Positions 6,261-26,447 of a stretch of 31,469 nt of DNA are shown here, piece by piece. Every line of letters starts with the position of its first letter. The first letter of the stretch is position 1. The stretch comes from an uncultured Candidatus Bathyarchaeia archaeon (GTDB taxonomy: Archaea; Thermoproteota; Bathyarchaeia; 40CM-2-53-6). The translations under genes were made by a program, and so were the position numbers. The stretch is from the NCBI GenBank assembly GCA_964428235.1, contig CAYRXJ010000001.1, positions 5,077-36,545 on the forward strand. The letters run 5' to 3'. The notes under the pieces are model-generated. The model made no database searches, was not told the origin of the DNA, and saw only the letters and a program-made list of their open reading frames with translations.

Positions 6261-6327
6261 GACCGGGGTCTTCGGGTCTGGTTTTGTGCGGCCGTGGTCT
6301 AGCCTGGTCTATGATATCAGCCTGCCA

Positions 6328-6345
6328 TTGCAGTGCTCTGCAGAA
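6328..6345 (+). other. tRNA intron 1 (18 nt, canonical position 37/38)
   Basis: Central helix CTGC(6322-25)/GCAG(6340-43) with 3-nt bulges CA|T and AA|C. The intron-side outer helix is weak (relaxed BHB). Confidence 0.88.
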
Positions 6346-6360
6346 CGCTGACGACCCGGG

Positions 6361-6386
6361 AAACCGCCTAGACAGCGGTTCGGGAA
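6361..6386 (+). other. tRNA intron 2 (26 nt, non-canonical position 53/54)
   Basis: BHB with central helix CCCG(6355-58)/CGGG(6381-84), bulges GG|A and AA|T, and intron helix AACCGC/GCGGTT closing a 7-nt loop. Confidence 0.9.
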
Positions 6387-6423
6387 TTCAAATCCCGGCG
6401 GCCGCACCAGAAACCCACTCTGC

Positions 6424-11728: not shown

Positions 11729-11884
11729 ATGGCGCGCCACAAACCATCCGGTAAGAAAAAACATCTAGCACACGCTCTCAAGCAGGCCCAGCCTGTGCCA
11801 TCATGGGTTGTCGCCAAGACCGAAGGAAAGGTCCGCAGGACCCCGAAGGAGCGGCACTGGCGCGAGACGAAGATCAAGGTGTAA
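11729..11884 (+). CDS. rpl39e: 50S ribosomal protein L39e (51 aa; absent from the ORF track)
   Basis: Manual translation: MARHKPSGKKKHLAHALKQAQPVPSWVVAKTEGKVRRTPKERHWRETKIKV. Confidence 0.95.
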   Translation: MARHKPSGKKKHLAHALKQAQPVPSWVVAKTEGKVRRTPKERHWRETKIKV

Positions 11885-11889
11885 CATAA

Positions 11890-12351
11890 ACGTCCAAGAA
11901 ACAGGCTCCTGACTTAGAAGAGGACAACGTCGCTTCGCTAGAGGATGCTCCGGTCAAACCGGATGAGGAAGAAGCAATTGCAAAGCAGGAAGAACCTCAG
12001 GAGCTAGAGACAGAAGAGAAAACTCCTAAGGCTCCAGCCGAGCCCGGGGCCGAGGAGGCTGCGGGGGGCGAAGAAGAGGAGGAAGAAATAGAAATCGTCG
12101 AAGAGAAGTTCTACGATCTTAACCTCCGAAAGATCTGGGCTGCTCCCAGGGAGAAACGGACCCCTCGAGCCGTCAGATACGTAAGGGCATATGCTGCCGC
12201 AAGAATGAAAACAAACGATGTCTCCTTGAGCGAGGACACAAACAGCCTCCTATGGACGCGCGGCATAAGCAAACCGCCGCGGAAGATCCGGATCCGCGTT
12301 GTCAAGGACAAGGATGGCAAGGTAATCGTTTTTCCAGGTAAGGGAAAATGA
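11890..12351 (+). CDS. rpl31e: 50S ribosomal protein L31e with acidic N-terminal extension; apparent ACG start (absent from the ORF track)
   Basis: Manual translation: ...IEIVEEKFYDLNLRKIWAAPREKRTPRAVRYVR...LLWTRGISKPPRKIRIRVVK. The frame opens after TAA 11887-89 with ACG TCC AAG AAA; the first ATG (12205) is mid-domain. Confidence 0.92.
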   Translation, partial: TSKKQAPDLEEDNVASLEDAPVKPDEEEAIAKQEEPQELETEEKTPKAPAEPGAEEAAGGEEEEEEIEIVEEKFYDLNLRKIWAAPREKRTPRAVRYVRAYAAARMKTNDVSLSEDTNSLLWTRGISKPPRKIRIRVVKDKDGKVIVFPGKGK

Positions 12352-12415
12352 ATGGCGCCTATCATTCTCTCTAAAAGACTAGGATCTTCGCTGTAATGCT
12401 CCCGTCGAGTTTTGC

Positions 12416-12907
12416 ATGAAAGCAGGAATCACATACCTGATCCGTTCCCACAAATCTTCCGACTTGGAATGGGTCATCCAAGCCCATAGAGAAATCCCGC
12501 CCGGAGAGTTCGGCTTCGAGAAGGACTTCGGGCAAATGGTAGCGGGAATTGTCTCGGGTTTTGAGAAAAACTTCGATGAAGAGTACGAGCATTGTTGGAT
12601 CGCTGAAATAGCGGGGGACCAGGTAGGATGTGTCTTCCTTGTGAAGATCTCGGACAAGGTCTCCCAGTTGCGACTCCTGCTCGTTGACCCGAAAGCCCGC
12701 GGGCTAGGCATCGGAAAACAGATGATAAACGAGTGTGTCAACTTCGCTAGAGCCGTCGGCTACGATAAGATCGTCCTCGAAACCGATAGCATAGCAGTCG
12801 TTGCGCGTCACTTGTACCACAACACTGGTTTTAGACTAGTGTGCACCGTCCCGCACACATTCTACGGTCGAGAAACACTCGATGAGAGATGGGAGCTGAA
12901 GCTCTAG
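12416..12907 (+). CDS. GNAT family N-acetyltransferase (resembles the GNAT half of bacterial MarR-GNAT fusions)
   Basis: CWIAE..GDQVGCVFLVK...SQLRLLLVDPKARGLGIGKQMI.EC..FAR..GY.KI.L; acetyl-CoA motif A RGLGIG. Confidence 0.9.
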   Translation: MKAGITYLIRSHKSSDLEWVIQAHREIPPGEFGFEKDFGQMVAGIVSGFEKNFDEEYEHCWIAEIAGDQVGCVFLVKISDKVSQLRLLLVDPKARGLGIGKQMINECVNFARAVGYDKIVLETDSIAVVARHLYHNTGFRLVCTVPHTFYGRETLDERWELKL

Positions 12908-12908
12908 A

Positions 12909-13574
12909 ATGCCAGTCATTCTCTCTGATATTTTCGGGGACCCTAACGTAGGAATCTTTTCATTCGCCAACGACAAAATAGCAATTCTCCCTGCAGGCAT
13001 ATCTGAAAAGAAACTGGAGAGTTTTCACCAGACTCTCGGTGTAGAATCGTGCTCGGTTGGAGTCGCGGAGTCGAGACTTGTCGGAATCTATGTCGCCGGG
13101 AACTCCAATGCAGTCCTAGTCCCGTACATCACAACCAAAGACGAGTTGAAGCATTTACGATCAACAGGCACGAACGTGAAAGTTCTCAAGGAGAAGCGGA
13201 CCGCCCTAGGAAATATCATCCTCTGCAACGACAATGGGGCAAACATCGAACCACAAATCAAACCAAACACGATAATCTCCTTCGAAAGGAATCTGAAAGT
13301 CCCCGTTCGACCATCAACGATCGGAGGCCTACACCATGTTGGTGCGCTAGCGATGGCGTCAAACAAGGGAGTTCTCGCCAACCCGATGATAACGGAGAGC
13401 GAGAGCAAGACGATTTCAACAGTCTTAGGCGTTCCGGTTTCGAAGGGAACTGTGAATTCTGGGATACCCTACCCGAAAGCGGGCCTCGTGGTAAATTCTC
13501 GTGGGGCGATAGTCGGCTCTCATACCCTTGGTTCTGAACTCCTGACATTGAGCAATGCTTTCCAAACGGACTAG
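12909..13574 (+). CDS. eif6: Translation initiation factor 6 (aIF6)
   Basis: GDPNVGIF, SRLVGIYVAGNSN, TALGNIILCND.GA, GTVNSG.PY..AGLVVNSRGAIVG..T.G.EL. Confidence 0.96.
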   Translation: MPVILSDIFGDPNVGIFSFANDKIAILPAGISEKKLESFHQTLGVESCSVGVAESRLVGIYVAGNSNAVLVPYITTKDELKHLRSTGTNVKVLKEKRTALGNIILCNDNGANIEPQIKPNTIISFERNLKVPVRPSTIGGLHHVGALAMASNKGVLANPMITESESKTISTVLGVPVSKGTVNSGIPYPKAGLVVNSRGAIVGSHTLGSELLTLSNAFQTD

Positions 13575-13629
13575 GGTTAAAGTACCGCATCACGAAGGCA
13601 CAACTTCTCAAAGGGCAGGGGACATCATT

Positions 13630-13833
13630 CTGAGCCAGGTAAGACGCTTCAAGATCACCGGTGAACTCCGCAAGGGAGGAGACAAACTACCATTCACCAA
13701 AGAGATACGGGCAGTCAAGAAAGAGGACGCGCTACAACACCTGTATTCTGATATGGGTAGCAGGCATAAGGCTCGAAAATTCGAGATAAATGTGAAACAA
13801 GTCGAAGAGCTTCCAGAGTCTGAGGCGGCTTGA
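13630..13833 (+). CDS. rpl18a: 50S ribosomal protein L18a/LX (L20e); probable CTG start
   Basis: RFKITGE, FTKEIRA, LYSDMGSRHK....I....VEE. The homologous region begins at CTG-AGC-CAG (MSQVRRF); the alternative ATG 13555 lies inside eif6. Confidence 0.88.
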   Translation: MSQVRRFKITGELRKGGDKLPFTKEIRAVKKEDALQHLYSDMGSRHKARKFEINVKQVEELPESEAA

Positions 13834-14303
13834 TGGCGAGCCCTAAGAAGCAGGCCATCGCTCCTCGAAACGTGGACGAGGAGATGCGTCAGCTTCTTGT
13901 CGAGATAAGAATGCTCGAAGGAACCGCGCGCGTCCTCTCATCGCGACTTGACATAGTGACTGGGGCGCTCTCAGAAACCCAGACTGCGAAAGCGACTCTT
14001 GAGGGAACGAAGGGGTCTGGAAAGGATGCTCACATGCTAATTCCGATCGGGTCCGGCTCGTTCGTCAAAGCCAAGCTAGAAGATCCAACGCACATCATAA
14101 TTGGCGTCGGTGCAGGAGTCTGTCTAGAGAAGACCGTTGATGATTCGATAAAGGATCTTAATCTTCGAGCCTCCGAACTTGACAAAGCGAGGATCAATGT
14201 TACCCAACAGCTGAACCAGGTAATAGGCCAGACCGAAGACTATCGAGCCCACCTCGAAGATCTTGCACGGAGAAAAGGCGGTGGGCCGGTAGAGATTGTT
14301 TGA
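13833..14303 (+). CDS. pfdA: Prefoldin alpha subunit
   Basis: Coiled coil - MLIPIGSGSFVKAKL....IIIGVGAGVCLEK - coiled coil architecture; conserved position. TTG 13830 is an alternative start. Confidence 0.93.
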   Translation: MASPKKQAIAPRNVDEEMRQLLVEIRMLEGTARVLSSRLDIVTGALSETQTAKATLEGTKGSGKDAHMLIPIGSGSFVKAKLEDPTHIIIGVGAGVCLEKTVDDSIKDLNLRASELDKARINVTQQLNQVIGQTEDYRAHLEDLARRKGGGPVEIV

Positions 14304-15201
14304 CAAGCTCAGAGCACAATTCTCGAACTTCTACGATCGCGTGACGAAGACAGATCTCCACGGCAAAGACCTGGACAAAGTCCTAGGCGAATTCCAGCTC
14401 TCTCTAGTCGAGAGCGATGTCGCGGTTTCTGTCGCGGACTATGTAGCTACCGAGCTGAAGGAAAAACTGCAGGATGCCCAGTTCACCCGCTTCTCTGACC
14501 CTCGCGCCAAGGTCAAAGCGATCCTAAGCGATGTCCTACTCTCAGTTCTCGATAGGGCCGGTAGGCTGGACATCTTCGAGCTTATCGAAAAGAAACGAAG
14601 CTCGGGAGAACCTGCCATCATCGTTTTCATCGGGATCAACGGAACCGGAAAAACAACAAGCATCGCGAAGCTGGCCCACATTCTATTGAAGAAAGGACGG
14701 ACTTGCATCGTGGCGGCCGGAGACACGTACCGATCTGGTTCAATAGAACAACTAGAGCAGCACACCAAGAAGATCGGCGTGCGATTGATCAAGCATCAGT
14801 ACGGAGCCGATCCCGCCGCGGTCGCTTTTGACGCTGTCAATTATGCGAGAGCTCACGGAGTCAATGCCGTTCTGATTGACACTGCAGGCAGAATGCAGAC
14901 AAACACCAACCTGCTAGAGGAGATGAGAAAAATCGTTCGGGTCACGAAACCAGACCTGACCATACTTGTTGTCGACGCTCTTACCGGGAACGACGCTGTT
15001 GAGCAGGGAAAAGTGTTCTCGCAGGCAGTCAAGATCGACGGTATCATTCTCTCTAAACTAGACGCGGATGTTAAGGGCGGAAACGCGATATCCCTGTCAT
15101 ATATCATGGGCAAACCGGTGACCCTGGTCGGGACGGGTCAAGGCTACGACGATCTAGAGTCCTTCCAACCTCAGACGATCGTAAAGAACTTGCTCGGTTA
15201 G
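14296..15201 (+). CDS. ftsY: Signal recognition particle receptor FtsY (NG domain only)
   Basis: GINGTGKTTSIAKLA, AAGDTYR, GADPAAVAFDA, DTAGRMQTN, SKLDADVKGG, GTGQGYDDL. Confidence 0.97.
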   Translation: MFDKLRAQFSNFYDRVTKTDLHGKDLDKVLGEFQLSLVESDVAVSVADYVATELKEKLQDAQFTRFSDPRAKVKAILSDVLLSVLDRAGRLDIFELIEKKRSSGEPAIIVFIGINGTGKTTSIAKLAHILLKKGRTCIVAAGDTYRSGSIEQLEQHTKKIGVRLIKHQYGADPAAVAFDAVNYARAHGVNAVLIDTAGRMQTNTNLLEEMRKIVRVTKPDLTILVVDALTGNDAVEQGKVFSQAVKIDGIILSKLDADVKGGNAISLSYIMGKPVTLVGTGQGYDDLESFQPQTIVKNLLG

Positions 15202-15265
15202 ACGAATCGAAGATGGTGTAGAGCGGCTACGCTGGGTGCGAGCTAGCCCGTAATTGGGATGTTTT

Positions 15266-15550
15266 CTAGATGGCGGGTTGCGTCGCTGGTGTTTCGAGCG
15301 GTATCGCGAGCTTTTGGTCGAGAGATTTCTTGAGATCATCGACTGTAGGGAAACGGCCCTGTTGGTGCTTCGAGAAGATCAGCTGGCCGTCAAGGACTAC
15401 ATCGAAGACTCCCTTGTCCGCCGGTTTTAGTGCAATTGTCAGCTTCCGGTTTAGTGGCATTCCATAAGTCGCTAACAACTGGTTTACCATGTCGACTGCT
15501 TTTGGCTGGTGACCACAGGGCTGGCAGTATGTTATTTCCAAATGAACCAT
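15266..15550 (-). CDS. Rdx (SelT/SelW/SelH) family thioredoxin-like protein, CxxC form
   Basis: LEITYCQPCGH, GVFDVVLDGQLIFSK....RFP. Confidence 0.85.
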   Translation of the reverse strand: MVHLEITYCQPCGHQPKAVDMVNQLLATYGMPLNRKLTIALKPADKGVFDVVLDGQLIFSKHQQGRFPTVDDLKKSLDQKLAIPLETPATQPAI

Positions 15551-15583
15551 TTTCTTGTCAGAGCCGAGGAATGCCTTGAGAGA

Positions 15584-15630
15584 TTTAAACCGTTTTCGGA
15601 CCAGCTACGGGATTCGGCGACTTATTATAA
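15584..15630. promoter_or_regulatory. Divergent promoter region for Rdx (TTTAAA 15584-89) and argF (TTATTATAA 15622-30)
   Basis: Two AT-rich TATA-like boxes at plausible distances from the divergent starts. Confidence 0.5.
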
Positions 15631-15682
15631 CGGGAGAGATTTCGAGGCTCGAAACCATATTCAGGGAGAGTAGCTAGAACAA

Positions 15683-16606
15683 TTGCTTGGACTGAAAGGA
15701 CGAGACATTCTCTCTCTAGTGGAACTCTCTCCCAAAGAGATTGACCTGATCCTCAAGCGTGCGGCCCTATTCGCTCGCCAGAAGAGAACCCCTCAACAGC
15801 TCAAGGGAAAAACCGTGGCCCTGATCTTCCAGAAATCTTCGACAAGAACCCGGGTCTCGTTCGAGACAGCTGTCGCTCAGCTAGGTGGGCACCCGATGTA
15901 TATGAGCTGGAACGAGATGCAGCTTGGAAGAGGCGAGACAGTGTCCGACACAGCGAAAGTCTTAGATCGCTACGTCGACGGCATAATGGCCCGAGTCTAT
16001 TCCCATGAGGATCTAATCACTCTAGCAGAAAACGCGGATGCTCCGGTGATCAATGGTCTATCAGACAAAGCACATCCGTGCCAGATTCTTGCAGACCTTC
16101 TCACCCTCATTCAATACAAGAAACGCCTGAAAGGTCTCAAGGTTGCGTACGTGGGCGATGGGAACAACGTGTGCAACAGCCTACTGATAGGCTGCGCCAA
16201 GACTGGAGTCAACATATCGGTCGCGAGGCCCCAAGGTTACGGCCCGGACCCAGAGGCAGTTCAGAACGCGGAGAAAGCAGCCGACACGTCCGGCTCAACT
16301 GTCGAAGTAACAGATGATCCTCAACAAGCGGTAAACGGCGCAGACGCCATCTATACCGACACGTTCGTCTCGATGGGAATGGAAAAGGAAAGAGAGACAC
16401 GTCTCTCGACGTTCATCCCGAAGTACCAGATTACCAAAGCGCTGATGTCACAAGCAAACCCTGGAGCAATATTCCTGCACTGCCTTCCCGCCCATAGAGA
16501 GGACGAAGTGACCGAGGAAGTTATTGATGGCCCGCAGTCAGCGGTTTGGGACCAAGCCGAAAACAGGCTCCACACATCAAAAGCCATCCTATCGCTAATC
16601 CTCTAG
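15683..16606 (+). CDS. argF: Ornithine carbamoyltransferase
   Basis: SSTRTRVSFE, HPCQILAD, GDGNNV, FVSMG, FLHCLPAHR, QAENRLH. Confidence 0.97.
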   Translation: MLGLKGRDILSLVELSPKEIDLILKRAALFARQKRTPQQLKGKTVALIFQKSSTRTRVSFETAVAQLGGHPMYMSWNEMQLGRGETVSDTAKVLDRYVDGIMARVYSHEDLITLAENADAPVINGLSDKAHPCQILADLLTLIQYKKRLKGLKVAYVGDGNNVCNSLLIGCAKTGVNISVARPQGYGPDPEAVQNAEKAADTSGSTVEVTDDPQQAVNGADAIYTDTFVSMGMEKERETRLSTFIPKYQITKALMSQANPGAIFLHCLPAHREDEVTEEVIDGPQSAVWDQAENRLHTSKAILSLIL

Positions 16607-16618
16607 ACAATCAAAAGA

Positions 16619-17449
16619 ATGGAATCCAGTTCCTCGCGCCACGTAATAGTTGCATCTCGTGCAGACCCCGCGTCGGTCAATATTGCCGCGAACCTGAAAG
16701 AACTGTTTCACTTCTCGGAGCCAAAGCAGACTGGTTTAGCTGGGGTCTACGCTAACGATAGTGTTTCACCCGTTGAAATCGAGGAGCCAGGCATATTCGT
16801 GAGACCAAACGGTGTTTCTCTTTCTGCGAGTCAGCTCATATTCGCATCGAACCACGTAAGCTCCTCAGGAACACCCGCTCGAACGGTACACGCCACAGGC
16901 AATCCTACTCGGGAGGCACTCTACGGGGGAAGTCCAGAACAACTCTCACAAGTTGACCCTCGCGCAATCAAGGAAGCTCTTCGTTCTTTGAAAAATGAAG
17001 CGCTGAAGCGTGGATTAGAGATCGAGATTACAATGGAAGCAACTCATCACGGCCCGACCGGCTTCGATATTCCTGTGATGTTCGTCGAGATTGGGAGCGG
17101 CCCGGCCCAGTGGCGCGATCCCCTCCTTGGACAAGTAGCCGCGAACGCAATCAGGGCGAGCATCAACAAACCCGCTAGAGCAGGTACAAACCGTATAGGA
17201 TTCGGTGGAACTCATTACCCCGCCAAGTTCACCTTTGCAAATTTCGAAAGTGACGATGCAGTTGGTCACGTCCTCTCAAGGCGTGCTTTCGATGCGGGAA
17301 TCTCCGAATCTACGTTAAGACAGGCTATTGACAAGACCCTCGGAGGCACCCCTTCCGCCCTCATTGACTGGAAGGGTCTGAACGGAAAACAACGACAAGA
17401 TCTGCTCTTGGTGCTTGAGAAATGGAATATCCCGGTGGAAAGATGCTAG
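16619..17449 (+). CDS. dtdA: D-aminoacyl-tRNA deacylase, archaeal/plant type (DTD2/GEK1)
   Basis: ASNHVS, TVHATGN, MEATHHGPT, FVEIGSG, IGFGGTHY, IDWKGL. Confidence 0.92.
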   Translation: MESSSSRHVIVASRADPASVNIAANLKELFHFSEPKQTGLAGVYANDSVSPVEIEEPGIFVRPNGVSLSASQLIFASNHVSSSGTPARTVHATGNPTREALYGGSPEQLSQVDPRAIKEALRSLKNEALKRGLEIEITMEATHHGPTGFDIPVMFVEIGSGPAQWRDPLLGQVAANAIRASINKPARAGTNRIGFGGTHYPAKFTFANFESDDAVGHVLSRRAFDAGISESTLRQAIDKTLGGTPSALIDWKGLNGKQRQDLLLVLEKWNIPVERC

Positions 17450-17475
17450 GGAATTTCCCATCCTATCTAGGATGG

Positions 17476-17483
17476 TTAAAATA
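17476..17483 (+). promoter_or_regulatory. TATA box upstream of secE-spt5-rpl11 operon
   Basis: TTAAAATA 46 nt before ATG 17529, in the dtdA-secE spacer. Confidence 0.5.
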
Positions 17484-17528
17484 GGAACTATCGGGTTCAA
17501 TCGCCTCTCAAACCGCGGAGTGTCAGCG

Positions 17529-17744
17529 ATGGGCCTCGGAAATTTCCTTCAATCGGCGAGACGCCTATTCCATGTAGCTCAGAAACCGGACTGGCAAGAA
17601 ACTAAGCTCAACATCAAGATCATCCTGTTAGGAGTCGCAATAGTAGGTGGCATCGGATTCGTTCTCCGGGTCCTCTTCTGGGTCGTCGGGCTGTATCAGC
17701 TTCCCGCGAGCCAGGCGGCCTCTGGTAGCACAACAGGTCCCTAG
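17529..17744 (+). CDS. secE: Protein translocase SecE/Sec61-gamma subunit
   Basis: RRLFHVAQKPDWQE....KI..LG..IVG.IGF plus a single TM helix; upstream of spt5. ATG 17529 chosen over the ORF-track start. Confidence 0.92.
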   Translation: MGLGNFLQSARRLFHVAQKPDWQETKLNIKIILLGVAIVGGIGFVLRVLFWVVGLYQLPASQAASGSTTGP

Positions 17745-17758
17745 GGGCATAACAACAA

Positions 17759-18256
17759 ATGGCGACCCAAACTCAGAAGACATCGATTTATGCAGTTCGT
17801 ACGACAAGCGGGCAAGAACGAACTGTAGTTGACATGATGGCTAGCCGTGTACAGCCCAAGAAATTGCCCATAGTGGCGATACTCGCACCGGAAGTCATCA
17901 AGGGCTACATCTTTGTCGAAGCATCAGGACCTCACTTTGTCGACGAGGCCATAGCCGGGACAAGACATGCACGCACAAGAACCAAGGGCGTCGTCTCTCT
18001 AGCAGCCATCGAACGATTCATTGTAACAAAACCGGTCATCGAAGAATTGAGCGTCGGTAACCTTGTCGAGGTTGTCGGCGGACCGTTCAGGGGTCTGAAG
18101 GCGAAGATCACTCACGTGGACAAGGTCAAACAAGAAGTCGTAATCGAGCTCCTGGAAGAAGGATTCGCCACGCTGCCGATCACTGTACACGCGGACTATG
18201 TCAAGCTCGTAAGCAGAGGAGAAGTGGAGGAAACTGGCGGACAAGAAAACAGTTGA
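17759..18256 (+). CDS. spt5: Transcription elongation factor Spt5 (NusG)
   Basis: YAVRTTSGQE, KGYIFVEA; KOW motif VEVVGGPFRGLKAKI; PITVHADYV. Confidence 0.97.
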   Translation: MATQTQKTSIYAVRTTSGQERTVVDMMASRVQPKKLPIVAILAPEVIKGYIFVEASGPHFVDEAIAGTRHARTRTKGVVSLAAIERFIVTKPVIEELSVGNLVEVVGGPFRGLKAKITHVDKVKQEVVIELLEEGFATLPITVHADYVKLVSRGEVEETGGQENS

Positions 18257-18725
18257 TGCAATAATCGACGGCGGCAAAGCAACGGCCGGCGTGCCGCTAG
18301 GGCCACAACTCGGCCCACTAGGCGTCAACATCCTTCAGATAGTCAACAAGATCAACGAACTGACGAAGGCCTATGCGGGAATGAAAGTTCCCGTCAAGAT
18401 TCTAGTCAACGTTGAAGACAAGAGCTTCGAGGTCGAGATCGGCACACCAACAACTTCCGCGCTGATCGTAAAAGAGCTTGGAGTGGAGAAGGGGTCTGCT
18501 ACTCCCAAAGCGACAAAGGTCGGGAACCTATCACCCGAACAGATTGTAAAGATCGCCCAGATGAAACGGACCGACAGCTACGCGAAGACCTTGCGGTCAG
18601 CAGTCGCCGAGGTCGCTGGAGCATGCGTGAGCATGGGCGTAACGGTCGATGCTAAGGAGCCGAAAGAATTCCTCAAGAACCTCTCCGAAGGCCAGTACGA
18701 CTCTGCGCTAAAGGAGCTACAATAG
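18234..18725 (+). CDS. rpl11: 50S ribosomal protein L11; apparent CTG start
   Basis: In-frame upstream extension of the ORF-track call gives (M)ADKKTVDAIIDGGKATAGVPLGPQLGPLG, 163 aa; GTGGAGG SD at 18224-30. Confidence 0.96.
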   Translation: MADKKTVDAIIDGGKATAGVPLGPQLGPLGVNILQIVNKINELTKAYAGMKVPVKILVNVEDKSFEVEIGTPTTSALIVKELGVEKGSATPKATKVGNLSPEQIVKIAQMKRTDSYAKTLRSAVAEVAGACVSMGVTVDAKEPKEFLKNLSEGQYDSALKELQ

Positions 18726-18737
18726 GCGACCATTAAC

Positions 18738-19403
18738 ATGCCACTCTCCAAGGAGGCGATAACAAAGGCTCTAGGCGACGTGAGGAGCAAGACAGAGAAG
18801 AAAAAGTTCACCCAAGCCATAGAACTCTCAGTCAAACTCCGAGAACTAGATCTCAAGAAACCGGAGGCAAGAATCAACGAGAATCTAGAACTGCCAACAG
18901 CAGCTAACAAGGACTCCAAGATCGCGGTCATCGCTGGTGGCGATCTCGCAATAAGAGCCAAGAACGCGGGCGCGGACATTGTTATCGGCCGAGAAGACGT
19001 TGACAAGCTCGGCCGAGACAAGAAGCAAGCCAGGAAGATTGCACAGGGATACGACTTTTTCGTTGCGGAAGCACCACTCATGCCGCAGGTCGGAAAATCT
19101 CTCGGACAAATCCTTGGTCCTAGAGGAAAGATGCCGACTCCAATTCCTCCCACAGCACCGATCGACGACATCATCAAGCGACAGCGGCGCAACGTGCGAT
19201 TGAAAATGAAGGATCAACCAGTAATCCAGTGCAAGGTCGGAACCGAGGACATGACCGACGACGTACTGGTTCAGAATATCCAGACTGTGATCTCGCGGCT
19301 AGAGGCAAAGTTGGAGAAGGGTCCCAAGAACATCAAGGCTATCTCGATCAAAGCCTCGATGGGGCCGCTCGTCAAGATCCCGTTAACAACGGCGGCGTCA
19401 TAG
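18738..19403 (+). CDS. rpl1: 50S ribosomal protein L1
   Basis: KKFTQAIELSV, DFFVAEAPLMP.VG..LG..LGPRGKMP, KASMGP. Confidence 0.98.
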   Translation: MPLSKEAITKALGDVRSKTEKKKFTQAIELSVKLRELDLKKPEARINENLELPTAANKDSKIAVIAGGDLAIRAKNAGADIVIGREDVDKLGRDKKQARKIAQGYDFFVAEAPLMPQVGKSLGQILGPRGKMPTPIPPTAPIDDIIKRQRRNVRLKMKDQPVIQCKVGTEDMTDDVLVQNIQTVISRLEAKLEKGPKNIKAISIKASMGPLVKIPLTTAAS

Positions 19404-19407
19404 AGCA

Positions 19408-20283
19408 ATGTCAACGACACGAAAAGTAGCCGCCTGGAAGAAAGAGGCTATCGCCGAGCTCCAAGAGCTCTTGAAAGAGTACCCGGTTATTGCCGCAGCT
19501 GATCTGACAAAGGTTAGATCCTCTCAGATTCACGAGTTGCGTAAGCGTCTTCGCAATAAAGTCGCTATGGTGGTTGCCAAGAACAATCTCCTGCGAAAAT
19601 CTGTAGAGCTTTCTGAAGACAATCATGGGCGAGTGGGAGAGTTCGTTAAAGACCTCGAGGGCTCAAACATTCTGCTGTTCACCGACGTCAATCCGTACTC
19701 ACTGATTATGCTGCTTGACAAGAGCAAGGTTCGAGTCCCGGCGAAAGGAGGCGATATTGCGACTGGCGAGATCATGATTCCTGCTGGAAACACGGGGATT
19801 CCTCCTGGACCGGTGATTAGCGAGTTTGGAGAGATCAAGGTCCAGACCAGAATCGAAGGAGGAAGCATATGGGTCGCGAAAGACTCAATCGTCGCAGGAA
19901 AAGGCGACCTGATTACTCCAAAGATGGCATCTGTCCTCTCGAAGCTTGGACTGAAACCGATGGAAGCAGGTCTCACACTAGCAACCGCTTACGATAACGG
20001 GACGATTCTCAAGTCAGACGATCTCATCCTCGATGTCGGCTCTTACCGAAACGATGTAGTACGAGCGGTCAGCAACGCATTCAGTCTATCACTAGATGCA
20101 GGATATGCCACACCTGAAAACGCTCCTAGAATTCTTGGAAAAGGAATGAGGGAAGCAATTGCGCTCGCTGTGAGCGGCGGCTTCATGGAGACCGGGACTG
20201 TTGAACCAGTCCTGAGACAAGCTCTGCGCTACGCCAACGCACTAAATGCCAAGATCGTGGCTGCCACACCCGCAAACCCTTAA
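19408..20283 (+). CDS. rpl10: 50S ribosomal protein L10 (P0)
   Basis: IHELRKRLR, VAKNNLL, PAKGGDIA, PAGNTGIPPGP, TRIEGGSI. Confidence 0.97.
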   Translation: MSTTRKVAAWKKEAIAELQELLKEYPVIAAADLTKVRSSQIHELRKRLRNKVAMVVAKNNLLRKSVELSEDNHGRVGEFVKDLEGSNILLFTDVNPYSLIMLLDKSKVRVPAKGGDIATGEIMIPAGNTGIPPGPVISEFGEIKVQTRIEGGSIWVAKDSIVAGKGDLITPKMASVLSKLGLKPMEAGLTLATAYDNGTILKSDDLILDVGSYRNDVVRAVSNAFSLSLDAGYATPENAPRILGKGMREAIALAVSGGFMETGTVEPVLRQALRYANALNAKIVAATPANP

Positions 20284-20339
20284 GTGCAAGATTTGATGCT
20301 CCGCTGAAATCCAATCAAAACTAAGAGAGGAATACTCGA

Positions 20340-20642
20340 ATGAAGTATGTTTACGCTGCACTGCTGTTGCACTCGTCAGCACAGCCTGTTACTGAAGAGA
20401 ACGTCAAGAAAGTTGTTGCTGCCACCGGCAGCCAAGTCGAAGACGCACAAGTCAAAGCGCTAGTAGCGGCATTATCAGAAGTCAACATCGACGAGGCCCT
20501 GAAGTCAGCCAGCGCCATGGCCGCGCCCGTAGCGGCGCCCGCAGCTCCGGCTGAGGCAAAGAAGGACGACAAGAAGCCAGCTGAAGAAGAGAAGAAGAAA
20601 GAAGAGGAAGCCCTAGCAGGACTAGGGGCGCTCTTCGGTTAG
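20340..20642 (+). CDS. rpl12: 50S ribosomal protein L12 (archaeal P1/P2 stalk)
   Basis: MKYVYAALLLH, LVAALSEVNIDEAL, Ala/Pro hinge, EEEALAGLGALFG. Confidence 0.98.
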   Translation: MKYVYAALLLHSSAQPVTEENVKKVVAATGSQVEDAQVKALVAALSEVNIDEALKSASAMAAPVAAPAAPAEAKKDDKKPAEEEKKKEEEALAGLGALFG

Positions 20643-20716
20643 AGGAGGTTCGCGGTTATAGCTCCGCACGATCTTCTCCATCCCAGAACTATCTAGAACA
20701 ACTGTCTCAGCTAAGC

Positions 20717-20726
20717 TTCTATATTT
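20717..20726 (+). promoter_or_regulatory. TATA-like box upstream of alaS
   Basis: TTCTATATTT ending 27 nt before ATG 20753. Confidence 0.45.
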
Positions 20727-20752
20727 CCAGCAAAACCGCGGGAGTACGGTAG

Positions 20753-23542
20753 ATGCCAGAGATTAATCCAGAAGAATTCGCCCTCCAATTCTTCAACGAA
20801 ATCGGATTCACCAGACACAAATGTCCATCATGCGGATCAAACTATTGGGCTATTCCGGAACAATCAACATGTGGTGAGGTGCCTTGTGCGCCATACACCT
20901 TTCTCGGCAATCCTCCGGCTAAACGAAAGTATAGTCTTGCTGAAATGAGGATCCAGTTTCTAGACTATTTCGCCCAGCATGGACATACAAGGATCAAACC
21001 ATACCCGATTGTAGCCCACTGGCGCAACGACGTGTATCTGGTTGGCGCGTCCATCTACGATTTTCAACCATACGTGACGGAGGGAAGCATGCCGCCGCCG
21101 GCCAATCCCCTGGTGATCAGCCAGCCCTGCATCCGCTTTACAGACATCGAAGCTGTTGGCGCCGCTGGTCGTCACATGTCAATTTTCGAGATGGGTGGAG
21201 CACATGCGTTCAACTATCCCGACAAAGAAATCTATTGGAAAGAAGACACAGTCAGATATCACCACGATCTCTTGTCAAACGTTCTCGGCGTCCCGTCCAG
21301 CTCGATCACTTACAAAGAGCACTTCTGGTCTGGAGGAGGAAACGCTGGCCCAGACCTCGAGGGAATTGTTGCCGGACTCGAAATATCGACACTAGTCTTC
21401 ATGCAATATAGGGTCCAAGGAGAACAGCTGATCGGACTACCAATTCGGACTGTAGACACCGGGTATGGAATGGAGAGATGGGCCTGGCTGTCCCAGGGGG
21501 CGCCCAGCGGTTTCCACGCCGTCTACGGGGATCTACTATCGCAGGTTACAGGACTTGCAAAGGTCGATCTTGACGAGAACACTCTGTCCGCCCTGACGAG
21601 AAATGCCGGGGTATATGGCGCGGCGACTAGGGGTGCGAGGAACTCATACATTGATGCGACAGCACAAGAACTAGGACGAGACAAGGATGAGTTCCGATCG
21701 ATAGTTCAAACCCTCGAAGCGGCTTACGCAATTACTGATCACACAAAGTCAATCACGTTCCTCCTCGCCGAGGGCGTTGTCCCTTCAAACGTTGGAGAAG
21801 GCTATCTCACACGTCTGATCATTCGACGTGCGGCACGGCTTGCTCGCCAGATGGGAATCTTGGGAGAATTGCCAGGAATTATCGAGAGCCAGATCAAACT
21901 TTGGGGAGGAGACTTCCATCTTCTCCGAGAGATGAAACGCGAAATACTAGACGGTCTGCAGATCGAGATAGGGAAATACGAGGAGACAATCGGCAAAGGA
22001 TCCGAGGCAGTCCTCAGACTGTCCAAGGATCTAGCGAGCCAAGGAATCCGGAAAATCCCGACCGACCAACTTGTCCTGCTGTACGACTCGCAAGGGCTCG
22101 CGCCCGAGATCGTCAAGGAGAGCGCGGAAAAAGTCGGAGTCGAAGTCGATGTCCCCGACAACTTTCTAACACTGGTTGCTGAACGCCATTCGAAACCCAC
22201 TAGCACACTTGACTCGTCGCCAGACAACGAGTGGGCCGAGAAGGTGAAGGACCTCCCAGCCACTAGGACACTGTACTACGATGACGCGTACAAGACTAGT
22301 TTCAAAGCGAAAGTTGTGGCAAACTTTCCCGACGGTGTTGTTGTCCTGGATCAGACCTGTTTCTATCCCGAGGGAGGAGGCCAGCCAGGCGATCATGGCG
22401 AGCTGAGGACCGGAGATAAGAAAGCCAGAGTCACGAACGTCCAAAAGATCGGAAACACTATCGTTCATTTTCTGGACCAGCCTCTCGACGAAGGGGCGGA
22501 CTTAGTCGAGGGAGAGATTGACTGGCAGCGCCGCCAGAACCTGATGCGTCATCACACAGGTACACACGTCCTCATCGGATCAGCACGCAGGGTCCTCGGC
22601 GAGCACGTATGGCAGGCAGGAGCCGCAAAAGAAGTTGAGAACAGCAGGCTGGACATTACTCACTATCGCGAGATCACTGCGAAAGAGAGAGAAAAAATCG
22701 AACGGCTCGCGAACCAGATAATCCTCCGAGACCTGCCCGTCCAGATAGCCTGGATGGCCCGCGAAAAGGCCGAAGCGAAATACGGCTACCGGCTATACCA
22801 AGGAGGAGCAGTCCCTGGCTCGAAGATCAGAGTAGTCCGGATCCAGGGATGGGATGCCGAGGCCTGCGGGGGAACACACTGCAAGAGAACAGGCGAACTG
22901 GGAGTCTTCAAGATCGAAAAGGCCAGCAAGCTCCAAGATGGAGTGGAAAGAATCATCTTTCAAGCAGGCGAGCCCGCGCTCAAACGAATCAACCAACAAG
23001 GCGATACTCTCGCCAAAGCAAGCGAACTCCTGAAGACAACTCCTGACAAGCTTCCCGAATCAATCAAGACGCTGGTCGCCGAGAACGACTCTCTCGCAAG
23101 AGAGGTCGAAAAAGTCCATGCGAAGTCTCTCGAAACCCATGTTCACCAGCTTGCCAAGAAGGCGTCCGTTCTCGGTCCCATTCGGCTTGTGATCTCCAAG
23201 AGTTCGAAAAAGCGAGGCATCGACCCACAGGCAGTAGCAAATCGACTGAAAGAATCCGATCCAAACATGCTCGCGATAATCTTCGAAGTCTCAGAACGCG
23301 TCCAGATCGTCGCGGCAGCAGGCGAAGCAGCTGTCAAGGCAGGCGTGAATGCAGGCCAAATAGTATCGGACGCAGCAAAAGTCCTTGGCGGCGGTGGAGG
23401 CGGCAGACCATTCTTTGCGACTGGTGGAGGCTCGTCCAAAGATCGAATCGACGAGGCGTTGAAAGTTGCTGAAGAGAGGATAACTGCACAGCTGAACCTG
23501 AGTAGGCCGGAGGAGGAGGTCGCTGACGCCAGCCAAGTTTGA
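20753..23542 (+). CDS. alaS: Alanine--tRNA ligase (archaeal type)
   Basis: N-terminal CPSC..CGEVPC, SQPCIRF, FEMGGAHAFN, VDTGYGMER, DHTKS; editing-domain HTGTH and CGGTHC; C-terminal GGGGGGRP. Confidence 0.98.
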   Translation: MPEINPEEFALQFFNEIGFTRHKCPSCGSNYWAIPEQSTCGEVPCAPYTFLGNPPAKRKYSLAEMRIQFLDYFAQHGHTRIKPYPIVAHWRNDVYLVGASIYDFQPYVTEGSMPPPANPLVISQPCIRFTDIEAVGAAGRHMSIFEMGGAHAFNYPDKEIYWKEDTVRYHHDLLSNVLGVPSSSITYKEHFWSGGGNAGPDLEGIVAGLEISTLVFMQYRVQGEQLIGLPIRTVDTGYGMERWAWLSQGAPSGFHAVYGDLLSQVTGLAKVDLDENTLSALTRNAGVYGAATRGARNSYIDATAQELGRDKDEFRSIVQTLEAAYAITDHTKSITFLLAEGVVPSNVGEGYLTRLIIRRAARLARQMGILGELPGIIESQIKLWGGDFHLLREMKREILDGLQIEIGKYEETIGKGSEAVLRLSKDLASQGIRKIPTDQLVLLYDSQGLAPEIVKESAEKVGVEVDVPDNFLTLVAERHSKPTSTLDSSPDNEWAEKVKDLPATRTLYYDDAYKTSFKAKVVANFPDGVVVLDQTCFYPEGGGQPGDHGELRTGDKKARVTNVQKIGNTIVHFLDQPLDEGADLVEGEIDWQRRQNLMRHHTGTHVLIGSARRVLGEHVWQAGAAKEVENSRLDITHYREITAKEREKIERLANQIILRDLPVQIAWMAREKAEAKYGYRLYQGGAVPGSKIRVVRIQGWDAEACGGTHCKRTGELGVFKIEKASKLQDGVERIIFQAGEPALKRINQQGDTLAKASELLKTTPDKLPESIKTLVAENDSLAREVEKVHAKSLETHVHQLAKKASVLGPIRLVISKSSKKRGIDPQAVANRLKESDPNMLAIIFEVSERVQIVAAAGEAAVKAGVNAGQIVSDAAKVLGGGGGGRPFFATGGGSSKDRIDEALKVAEERITAQLNLSRPEEEVADASQV

Positions 23543-26447
23543 TTGGAGATCGCTCGAGAGAAAGTGGCAGAAGAAATGGGACTGGGCGAAAGTCAACCGG
23601 ACCGACCCTGATCCTCGCAAGCCGAAGTACTTCGTAACAGCAGCCTATCCCTACCCTAACTCTCCGCAACATATCGGACACGCAAGAACATACACTATCG
23701 CTGATGTCAACGCTCGATATCATCGGATGAGAGGCTACAACACCCTCTTCCCTATGGGATTCCACTACACAGGCGCTCCCTTGTTCGCGATGAGCAAACG
23801 GTTACGAGAAGGCGACCAGGAGATCGCTGAGACATTCACAAAGATCTACGGCATTCCCTCGGCGACACTGGAGAAGCTGAAAGAACCGAAATCGATGGCC
23901 TCATACTTCCGCGAGGATATCAGAAAGGGTATGCTGGAAATGGGCTTCTCCATTGACTGGCGTCGTGAATTCACAACGATCGACCCATTGTACAGCAGGT
24001 ACATCGAATGGCATTTTCAAACACTCAGATCGAAAGGGTTGATCACGAGGGGAACGCACCCTGTCGCATGGTGTCCTAATGACAAGAACCCGGTTAGCGT
24101 CGTTGATACGATCGGAGACGTTGAGCCGGATATTGGCGAGTCCTATCTTGTAAAGTTCGAAAAAGATGGAATCTACTATCCAACTTCCACCCTTAGACCT
24201 GAGACATTGTTCGGCGTCACTAATCTCTGGGTCAATCCTGAGGCGAAGTACGTCCGGGCGAATGTTGACGGAGACCTCTGGGTCATCAGCAGAGAAGCAG
24301 TGGAGAAACTAGTCGAGCAGAACCACGAGGTTGCGGTCAAACTCGAAGTCGACTCCTCCGAGCTACTATGGAAGAACGTGACCAGTCCTGTTACTGGAAA
24401 AGACGTTCTGATTCTTCCCGGAGGGTTCGTCGAACCGGACAATGGCACAGGTCTCGTAATGTCCGTTCCCGGTCATGCCCCATATGACTACCAAGCTCTA
24501 AAAGATCTAAAGAAAAGGTCCGAGGGTTCAGCTCAGAGCGCTATCGTTCGAGATATCGAGCCCATCTCAATAATTCTTCTCGAAGGATTCTCAGAATTTC
24601 CAGCCGCGGATCTGATAGAGAAGTTCAAGATCACAGACCAGAACGATCCCCATCTAGAACACGCTACACAGGAGCTGTATTCGAAGGAGTTTCACGACGG
24701 CATTATGAAAGAGAACACGGGCAATTATTCAGGAATGCCCGTTGCGAAGGCTCGAGACGCCATCGTCAAGGAACTGACAAGCGAAGGTTCCATCAAGACT
24801 CTCCTCGAGCTGAGAAACGCGCCAGTCGTATGTCGTTGCGGAACCAAATGTGTTGTGCACATTCTCGAGAACCAGTGGTTCATCAACTATGGCGACCCGG
24901 AATGGAAGAAACTAGCCCACAAGTGCCTGGATCAGATGGCTATTCTACCCGAAGAATTACGAGGGGAGTTCAACTACACGATCGACTGGCTAAGAGAGCG
25001 AGCGTGCGCAAGAGCAGTTGGCCTAGGTACCAAGCTCCCATGGGACAAGGAGTGGATCATCGAGGCCCTGTCCGACTCAGTCGTCTACATGGCCTACTAC
25101 CTAATCGCGAAATATCTGTCGAAGGACTGGGTGGTCTTCAAGAGGTTCGAAAATGACATTTCAAAGCTACCGGATGCGTTCTTCGACTACACGCTACTCG
25201 GAGCGGGAGAAGTAGGGCCGCTCGCTGAGCAGACGGGTATCTCAAAGAGGACATTGAATGCCATCCGGGCCGAGTTCGATTACTTCTATCCTGTCGACGT
25301 GCGCCATTCGGCACGGGACCTAGTGTCAAATCATCTTTCGTTCTACATCTTCCAACACTCAACACTCTTCCCCGAGAAGAAATGGCCGAAGGGCATTGTC
25401 GCCAACGGCTTTGTCCTGATGGAAGGTGCGAAGATGTCCAAATCACTTCAGAACATCATGCCACTACGTCTGGGAATCTCGAAGTTTGGTGCTGACCCCG
25501 TGAGGGTCGAGGTTATGGCTACGGCAGAGTTAGGTCAGGACACAGACTTCAGCGAAAGTCTCGCGACATCAATACAGGAACGACTAGTATCCCTAATATG
25601 GCAGGCCAAAATCATCGGCCGAAAGAAAACAACCAGCCGGTCAAGATACTCCTCAGTAGACCGGTGGATGATCAGCCGCCTGACAAGTGCGGTTGAAGCA
25701 ACAACCATTGCTCTTGACAAGTTGCGGGTTAGAGAAGCGATCAATATCGTCCTCTATCACCTTGATAACGACATCGCATGGTACAAGAGGCGGCTGGGAC
25801 CAAGGAAACGCGGGGGGGACAATCGCGACCGAGTTCTACGGATGGTTTTGGAGACAAGGACGAGAATGCTTGCACCCCTTGCTCCGCACACTGCCGAGGA
25901 GGTCTGGAATCGTATCGGCAACAAAGGGTTCGTTGTTCAAGCTGACTGGCCAGAAGTCAAAGAGGATGAGAAGGATGCTAAGGCGGAAATGGCTGAAGCC
26001 TTGATTCGGCAGGCCATGGAAGACACTTCTGAAATTACTAGAGCGACAGGCATCACTCCGAGAAATATTGCATACTATGTTGCTGCGGAATGGAAATGGC
26101 AAGTATACCTGAAAGCATTGCACTGGGCAGAGGAGAAGCGGAAGCCTGGGGAGTTCATCAAGAGCATTATGGCGGATCCTCAATTGCGAGCCATCGGCAA
26201 GCCCGCGGCCGACTATTCGTCCAAGGCAATGCAGCAAGCCAACCAGATGCCAGATGAGATGAGAAAGTCGCGTCTAGCCACGAATGATGTAGACGAGAAG
26301 CAGATCTTCGCGAGTTCGCTAGAGTTCTACCAACGGGAGTTCAAATCCAGAGTGGAAGTCTGGACGGAAGGAGACGCAGCCATAAACGATCCGAAAGCGA
26401 GATCAAAAAACGCGGAACCCTATAGGCCGGCAATCTTTCTGGAATAG
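23523..26447 (+). CDS. leuS: Leucine--tRNA ligase (archaeal/eukaryal type); apparent CTG (or ACG 23526) start
   Basis: The frame opens after TGA 23499-501. It encodes KFDWRSLERKWQKKW...KYFVTAAYPYPNSPQHIGH (HIGH at 23670-81) upstream of the ORF-track ATG 23727; KMSKS is present. Confidence 0.98.
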   Translation: MTPAKFDWRSLERKWQKKWDWAKVNRTDPDPRKPKYFVTAAYPYPNSPQHIGHARTYTIADVNARYHRMRGYNTLFPMGFHYTGAPLFAMSKRLREGDQEIAETFTKIYGIPSATLEKLKEPKSMASYFREDIRKGMLEMGFSIDWRREFTTIDPLYSRYIEWHFQTLRSKGLITRGTHPVAWCPNDKNPVSVVDTIGDVEPDIGESYLVKFEKDGIYYPTSTLRPETLFGVTNLWVNPEAKYVRANVDGDLWVISREAVEKLVEQNHEVAVKLEVDSSELLWKNVTSPVTGKDVLILPGGFVEPDNGTGLVMSVPGHAPYDYQALKDLKKRSEGSAQSAIVRDIEPISIILLEGFSEFPAADLIEKFKITDQNDPHLEHATQELYSKEFHDGIMKENTGNYSGMPVAKARDAIVKELTSEGSIKTLLELRNAPVVCRCGTKCVVHILENQWFINYGDPEWKKLAHKCLDQMAILPEELRGEFNYTIDWLRERACARAVGLGTKLPWDKEWIIEALSDSVVYMAYYLIAKYLSKDWVVFKRFENDISKLPDAFFDYTLLGAGEVGPLAEQTGISKRTLNAIRAEFDYFYPVDVRHSARDLVSNHLSFYIFQHSTLFPEKKWPKGIVANGFVLMEGAKMSKSLQNIMPLRLGISKFGADPVRVEVMATAELGQDTDFSESLATSIQERLVSLIWQAKIIGRKKTTSRSRYSSVDRWMISRLTSAVEATTIALDKLRVREAINIVLYHLDNDIAWYKRRLGPRKRGGDNRDRVLRMVLETRTRMLAPLAPHTAEEVWNRIGNKGFVVQADWPEVKEDEKDAKAEMAEALIRQAMEDTSEITRATGITPRNIAYYVAAEWKWQVYLKALHWAEEKRKPGEFIKSIMADPQLRAIGKPAADYSSKAMQQANQMPDEMRKSRLATNDVDEKQIFASSLEFYQREFKSRVEVWTEGDAAINDPKARSKNAEPYRPAIFLE

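Follow-up and report, generated by a model that had tools for sequence, protein, structure and literature searches.

Probable use of CUG and ACG as start codons in a Bathyarchaeia lineage

Initiation at near-cognate codons is already known from several systems. Eukaryotes and their viruses use CUG and ACG starts, which the initiator methionyl-tRNA (Met-tRNAi) reads, the stringency of selection being set by eIF1. Rare bacterial starts include the AUU codons of Escherichia coli infC and pcnB, and CTG, ATT, ATC and ATA are listed in NCBI translation table 11; ACG is no initiator in that table. In plant chloroplasts and mitochondria, ACG start codons are edited to AUG. Among prokaryotes, the turnover of GUG and UUG starts at orthologous positions between close species was described by Belinky, Rogozin and Koonin in 2017 (PMC5622118), who also found the weaker starts to be associated with Shine-Dalgarno (SD) sequences. 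Here we describe a stretch of 31,469 nucleotides (the window) from an uncultured Candidatus Bathyarchaeia archaeon (GCA_964428235.1, contig CAYRXJ010000001.1, positions 5,077 to 36,545), in which the genes rpl31e and leuS appear to begin with ACG, and rpl11 and rpl18a/LX with CTG. On the evidence presented below, CUG and ACG are quite probably genuine weak start codons in this lineage. What would be new is near-cognate initiation that is lineage-wide, occurs in archaea and includes ACG.

The window carries an archaeal, co-oriented row of genes which includes rpl39e, rpl31e, a GNAT gene, eIF6, rpl18a/LX, spt5, rpl11, rpl1, rpl10, rpl12, alaS and leuS; all window features given below lie on the forward (+) strand. 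In rpl31e, rpl11, leuS and rpl18a/LX, conserved domain sequence is found 5' of any usable ATG, GTG or TTG. The sequence, Pfam and the species alignment place the start of rpl31e (11890–12351; L31e) at ACG 11890–11892, directly after an in-frame TAA (11887–11889). Its earliest ATG, GTG or TTG is ATG 12205 (residue 106) and, since the Pfam match begins at residue 78, 28 domain residues lie 5' of this codon. In rpl11 (18234–18725) an in-frame TAA (18210–18212) is followed by the putative start CTG 18234–18236, the earliest canonical codon being GTG 18291 (residue 20); the L11_N match extends from residue 10, leaving 10 domain residues 5' of the GTG. The leuS frame (23526–26447) contains, in order, an in-frame TGA (23499–23501), CTG 23523, the putative start ACG 23526–23528 and, as its earliest canonical codon, ATG 23727 (residue 68). 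Pfam matches the class I synthetase domain from residue 14, which puts 54 catalytic-domain residues, and also the HIGH-type signature (which is printed as QHIGH), 5' of that ATG. In rpl18a/LX (rplX; 13630–13833) the homologous start, CTG 13630–13632, opens a typical LX N-terminus (MSQVRRFKITG-like), with a domain match from residue 5; an in-frame ATG (13555) lies upstream of it in this genome only. The N-termini predicted from the near-cognate starts are (M)SKKQAPDLEEDN for L31e, (M)ADKKTVDAIIDGGK for L11, (M)PAKFDWR for LeuRS and (M)SQVRRFK for LX.

L31e also bears an acidic/mixed-charge N-terminal extension of 67 amino acids (11890–12090), which in relatives (L049–L076) reaches up to about 110 amino acids; across the family its presence is conserved and its sequence is not.

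The start columns were then compared across relatives. In leuS, ACG is found in nine same-genus species (L001–L009), in which it is kept while the adjoining codons vary synonymously; two species (L010, L016) have ATG, and in five (L011–L015) a TTG is located one codon downstream of the ACG column. Base C23527 is the third base of an alaS codon, GAC, and a change of ACG to ATG would be silent in alaS, yet nine species keep ACG. That this silent escape is available but unused suggests that the weak codon may be tolerated or favoured in leuS. Within the genus, the rpl11 column holds CTG in 16 genomes and GTG in a single one, with synonymous changes nearby, and ATG, GTG or TTG at the identical position in 12 genomes of other genera. 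CTG is also found there in a separate family (L116–L118), in which it arose separately. In rpl31e the ACG of the window corresponds to ATG in the eight closest species and to CTG in a ninth, while a second subclade has ACG (TSKEKK), with one member having ATG (MSKEKK). The rpl18a/LX column is occupied by CTG, TTG, ATG or ACG in close species; in the three closest (L050–L052) the frame is shut five codons before the CTG column, which leaves CTG as the sole option there.

An earlier note, made from the letters of the window, had reported conserved N-terminal sequence between an in-frame stop and the first ATG, GTG or TTG in leuS, rpl11 and rpl31e; this can be read directly from the sequence, and Pfam agrees. 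Its suspicion that rpl18a shares the habit is borne out by CTG 13630, the homologous start and the only option in L050–L052, and the ortholog alignment which it proposed as a check gave codons that are conserved in same-genus genomes or swapped with ATG, GTG or TTG. The choice of CTG 23523 as the leuS start did not hold: relatives have GTA, GCC, GCA or GAA in that column, so CTG 23523 is not the conserved start, which is ACG 23526.

The frequency of such starts in the whole genome (G000) was estimated by comparing its stop-to-stop frames with those of a 1.05-Mb contig (C8) of the most divergent congener, G006, giving 506 usable ortholog pairs. At least eight conserved aligned residues were found 5' of the first ATG, GTG or TTG in 37 of these pairs in G000 and in 47 of the 506 in G006, and about 20 of the G000 cases were convincing by eye. 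The share of genes with near-cognate starts is thus put at roughly 5%, with an upper bound of 7%. A set of 52 start columns was defined by the partner's first canonical start in cases where this genome has no canonical codon nearby. CTG and ACG occurred in six columns each and any other codon in at most three; together they made up 12 of the 52, against 1.8 expected (binomial p = 1.4e-7). In the columns neighbouring the start column no excess of CTG or ACG was seen, and within the 52 start columns there was no enrichment of ATA, ATT, ATC, AAG, TCG (2/52) or GCG (seen fewer than two times). The restriction to genes without a canonical codon nearby was needed for a clear signal; in the unrestricted table of all ortholog pairs, which is too noisy, ACG made up 2.0% of start columns compared with 1.8% in controls.

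Further genes in which a Pfam-identified domain begins before the first canonical codon specify S9, L14, L29 and L24e and, outside the ribosomal proteins, SecY, UPF0147, PyrI, PGK, an ABC ATPase, an aldo/keto reductase and a HAD hydrolase. The CxxC zinc-finger motif of L24e and the DxD motif of the HAD hydrolase are both located 5' of the first canonical codon. The presence of metabolic genes indicates that the habit is not specific to translation genes, and ribosomal proteins are prominent partly because their N-termini are easy to align. A special cluster in the translation genes of the window, as first supposed, is therefore not what is found, since cases occur genome-wide and include PyrI, PGK and the aldo/keto reductase. 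The accompanying proposal of relaxed start-codon selection at the level of the lineage fares better: it is upheld by a share of about 5% of genes, by same-genus genomes that share or swap the codons, and by the heavy use of TTG.

Canonical starts were tallied at 140 confidently aligned positions between G000 and the G006 contig: ATG accounts for 54%, TTG for 38% and GTG for 8%, and ATG/TTG swaps between the two genomes are common. In a survey of 36 prokaryote groups the ancestral starts comprised 61,358 AUG, 5,080 GUG and 2,468 UUG, with just two AUG-to-CUG switches among the 61,358 AUG starts (PMC5622118). The TTG share is ten times that of the survey (38% against about 3.6%).

Near-cognate starts are most frequent in this genus and sporadic across the order. 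When G000 was compared with two further genera from the same order, eight of its genes and two outgroup genes were flagged among the same 142 ortholog pairs (p = 0.055), an excess that is suggestive only; the flag rates were compared with two other genera of the family on just 89 and 53 pairs, at about 52% identity. By genome, the outgroup flags numbered 0/99 in one of 32% G+C and 2/43 in another, and one of the two flagged cases is an ACG start of rpl10e (contig C8 of G030). In a sister genus, two of eight genomes (L315, L317) have a CTG start in rpl29.

The sequences preceding the starts were also examined, an SD-like 4-mer being defined as GGAG, GAGG, AGGT, GGTG or GGGG at positions -17 to -4. 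A G-rich motif is present no more than 12 nt upstream of all four window starts. These are GGTG (11878–11881), 8 nt before ACG 11890; GGGG (13618–13621), 8 nt before CTG 13630; a purine-rich stretch in spt5 coding sequence (18216–18230) with GAGGAG (18216–18221) and GGAGG (18226–18230), 12 and 3 nt before CTG 18234; and GGAGGAGGAGGT (23509–23520), which ends 5 nt before ACG 23526 and encodes EEE of the alaS tail. In relatives GGAGGG is located 8 nt before the leuS ACG. Genome-wide, an SD-like 4-mer precedes 19 of 30 near-cognate starts (63%) and 91 of 280 canonical starts (33%; p = 0.0012), and 12 of 14 starts in a strict near-cognate set (p = 1e-4); the association with SD-like elements, first noticed in the window, thus holds genome-wide. 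A global count of GGAGG followed by a spacer and ATG gave no signal because GGAGG is mostly found in coding sequence.

The upstream genes are rpl39e (11729–11884) and the eIF6 gene (12909–13574), both with ATG starts, spt5/nusG (17759–18256), the 3' end of which is overlapped by rpl11, and alaS (20753–23542), the 3' end of which is overlapped by leuS. Relative to the upstream stop, the starts lie at +5 (rpl31e), +56 (rpl18a/LX), -23 (rpl11) and -17 nt (leuS). In the genome as a whole, a supported upstream gene has its stop no more than 30 nt away from 15 of 30 near-cognate starts (50%), compared with 73 of 280 canonical starts (26%; p = 0.0095). Two further observations concern this neighbourhood. 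A GNAT acetyltransferase gene (12416–12907) lies between rpl31e and the eIF6 gene, and alaS and leuS (20753–26447) follow the L1-L10-L12 stalk genes in a single co-oriented row, an arrangement that recurs in relatives.

Under the preferred explanation, the ordinary initiator Met-tRNA (anticodon CAU), on the small subunit, would pair with CUG or ACG despite a single mismatch. Shine-Dalgarno pairing about 8 nt upstream may put the subunit in place, or it may arrive from the stop codon that ends the preceding gene of the operon. Start-codon choice would be loose throughout the lineage, with ATG used more than TTG, TTG more than GTG, and GTG more than CTG and ACG, and starts would consequently drift among these five codons at orthologous positions. 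Weak codons that have been kept for long, such as the CTG of rpl11 and the ACG of leuS, may lower translation relative to the upstream gene.

Several points weigh against this explanation. The case for initiation at CUG and ACG is built on sequence comparison. The SD-like motifs of rpl11 and leuS sit in upstream coding sequence, whose coding role could explain them, and the automatic flags behind the genome-wide frequency include antisense shadow frames and ambiguous N-termini. The correctness of positions 18234 and 23526 is taken from their conservation across species. Lastly, no cause of the loosened selection was found among the candidates considered below.

The first alternative is that the weak codons function only through translational coupling, in which a terminating ribosome re-initiates nearby and the codon requirements are relaxed. 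The spacing in the window is what coupling would predict for three of the four starts, whose distances from the upstream stop are 23 nt or less (-23, -17 and +5), as is the genome-wide excess of near-cognate starts close to such stops. We nevertheless regard it as unlikely, for no supported upstream gene lies within 30 nt of the other half of the near-cognate starts; for some of these the distance is 60–550 nt or there is no such gene, and the rpl18a/LX CTG itself is 56 nt past the eIF6 stop. Coupling may thus help, and is probably not required.

A second proposal, which we consider doubtful to the same degree, concerns the initiation factor aIF1. In Sulfolobus, according to reports cited in PMC6237735 and PMC8211752, this factor discriminates against non-canonical start codons. 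Three SUI1/aIF1 genes are present in nearly every genome of this genus, two in a sister genus and one in all other families of the order. Those of G000 are located at C51:5633–5851, C23:12020–12229 and C23:1122–1331, all on the minus strand. Paralog A is an ordinary aIF1 with a zinc knuckle; the knuckle is absent from B and C, and in C the basic loop 1 is degenerate, with its basic and aromatic residues lost and HHSGR replacing RKWGK, residues whose equivalents in Pyrococcus are important for binding to the 30S subunit and to mRNA. The three paralogs form separate clades (relatives in L216–L245 and L290–L309), and B and C are 9–22 kb apart on one contig in several genomes. It is conceivable that, by competing for the small subunit with canonical aIF1, B and C raise initiation at CUG and ACG. 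Stringency would then be adjustable and the genes with weak starts (those of ribosomal proteins, LeuRS and SecY) would form a translationally co-regulated set, in an archaeal counterpart of eIF1/eIF5-type control of non-AUG starts or of DENR/eIF2D-type re-initiation. Copy number of aIF1 was rejected as the cause: the rpl29 CTG (2/8 genomes) occurs in a genus and the rpl11 CTG in a family with one copy, and a two-copy genus shows no near-cognate starts in six ribosomal-protein genes across 21 genomes. The paralogs are a lead rather than an explanation.

The initiator tRNA was examined as another candidate cause. ARAGORN found none in G000, an incomplete assembly in which just 17 tRNAs are assembled. 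A pattern search recovered the canonical anticodon arm GGGCUCAUAACCC, with an A1-U72 end, in 16 of 18 same-genus genomes, and an altered arm was accordingly discarded as a cause, the arm being normal in relatives. An additional initiator-like tRNA, with CAG or CGU as its anticodon, is not indicated: the single-mismatch matches also occur in outgroups and resemble elongators. The initiator tRNA genes of the relatives (L166–L181), missed by ARAGORN, have at least two insertions, of which one follows the anticodon arm and one is in the T arm. What precedes the D-loop on its 5' side bears no relation, in several genomes, to the acceptor and D-arm that would be expected, which suggests a further intron or a split gene. 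The window itself contains a tRNA gene (6288–6406; 30.5 bits against Rfam RF00005) in which two insertions measure 20 and 33 nt; neither ARAGORN nor a whole-window Rfam scan at default settings detects it.

Editing of the mRNA is the third alternative: C-to-U changes would convert ACG to AUG and CUG to UUG before translation, and the genomic codons would not be read as starts. Both codons are indeed a single C-to-U change from heavily used starts (ATG, 54%; TTG, 38%). Editing should, however, also place GCG (giving GUG) and TCG (giving UUG) in start columns, where both are at background, and many unrelated sites would each have to be recognised. CUG and ACG are, moreover, among the better-used single-mismatch starts in eukaryotic systems, and archaea are not known to edit the start codons of their mRNA. 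Editing is thus very unlikely, and direct initiation at CUG and ACG is preferred.

The genome is a fragmented metagenome-assembled genome (265 contigs, 1.63 Mb, 51% G+C), and the quality of the sequence was assessed from assembler contigs. Four public rock-metagenome DNA runs contain the window, two of them at about 30x. ACG 11890 is unchanged in the contigs of all four; positions 18234 and 23526 are covered by run contigs, and no difference is recorded there among the differences listed. No depletion of 4-mers was found in the genome, and a methylation-linked miscall is thus not indicated. That the codons are assembly or consensus errors, or the genes pseudogenes, with the real start at a downstream canonical codon or the genes dead, might be suggested by so fragmented an assembly, but is refuted for practical purposes: up to 16 species, each assembled independently, have the same codons amid synonymous changes, the stretch is found in four runs, and initiation downstream would deprive LeuRS of N-terminal catalytic-domain sequence with its HIGH-type signature and L24e of its CxxC motif. 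The view that random consensus errors are an unlikely source, also expressed in the earlier note, is thereby sustained by the codons kept across species and by the agreement of the four runs at ACG 11890. Read-through or fusion with the upstream gene was rejected as well, the genes upstream of rpl31e, rpl11 and leuS being in another frame; in relatives all three stop codons occur just upstream in the rpl11 alignment, which speaks against a read-through fusion.

If CTG and ACG act as starts, gene finders will cut these proteins short, as had been anticipated. The public protein set indeed contains exactly the 906-residue LeuRS that begins at ATG 23727, without the N-terminal part of the catalytic domain, together with a 92-residue LX beginning at ATG 13555, and has no protein matching the remaining L31e fragment. 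About one gene in 20 of these widespread soil archaea would be truncated or missed by standard gene callers, which would affect protein families, sets of marker genes and the reconstruction of metabolism. Start-codon selection in archaea is of the eukaryotic type (aIF1, aIF1A and aIF2), and this lineage, where UUG comes close to AUG in frequency, may show how far its loosening can go; the natural start regions of Bathyarchaeia could be used to test what sets stringency. Full-text literature searches, the coverage of which is incomplete so that the absence of a find is not proof, gave no description of ACG or CUG starts in Bathyarchaeia or other archaea.

Compared with the known systems, the closest likeness in apparatus is to eukaryotic near-cognate initiation, in which the same two codons, each a single mismatch to CAU, are used with machinery of the same type (aIF1, aIF1A and aIF2 in archaea). 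There, near-cognate codons give alternative isoforms or belong to upstream open reading frames, whereas here essential housekeeping genes would have no other start. The Bathyarchaeia codons are preceded by SD motifs or lie at operon junctions and would not be reached by scanning, and this lineage makes ordinary use of GUG and UUG as well, unlike the eukaryotic systems. With the rare bacterial starts they have in common weak codons in translation-related genes, preceded by SD elements and missed by gene finders. They differ in that AUU, AUC and AUA are not enriched, and in frequency, since about 5% of genes are affected and a bacterial genome has far fewer cases, only a few; for the bacterial infC an autoregulatory logic through IF3 is known. 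Plant organelle editing likewise presents a genomic ACG in conserved genes where relatives have ATG, but CUG starts lie outside its classical cases, and GCG and TCG are not enriched in the start columns. The turnover described in PMC5622118 resembles what is seen here in that starts are swapped at orthologous positions and the weaker ones are accompanied by SD sequences; in this lineage the set of exchangeable codons would be widened to include CTG and ACG.

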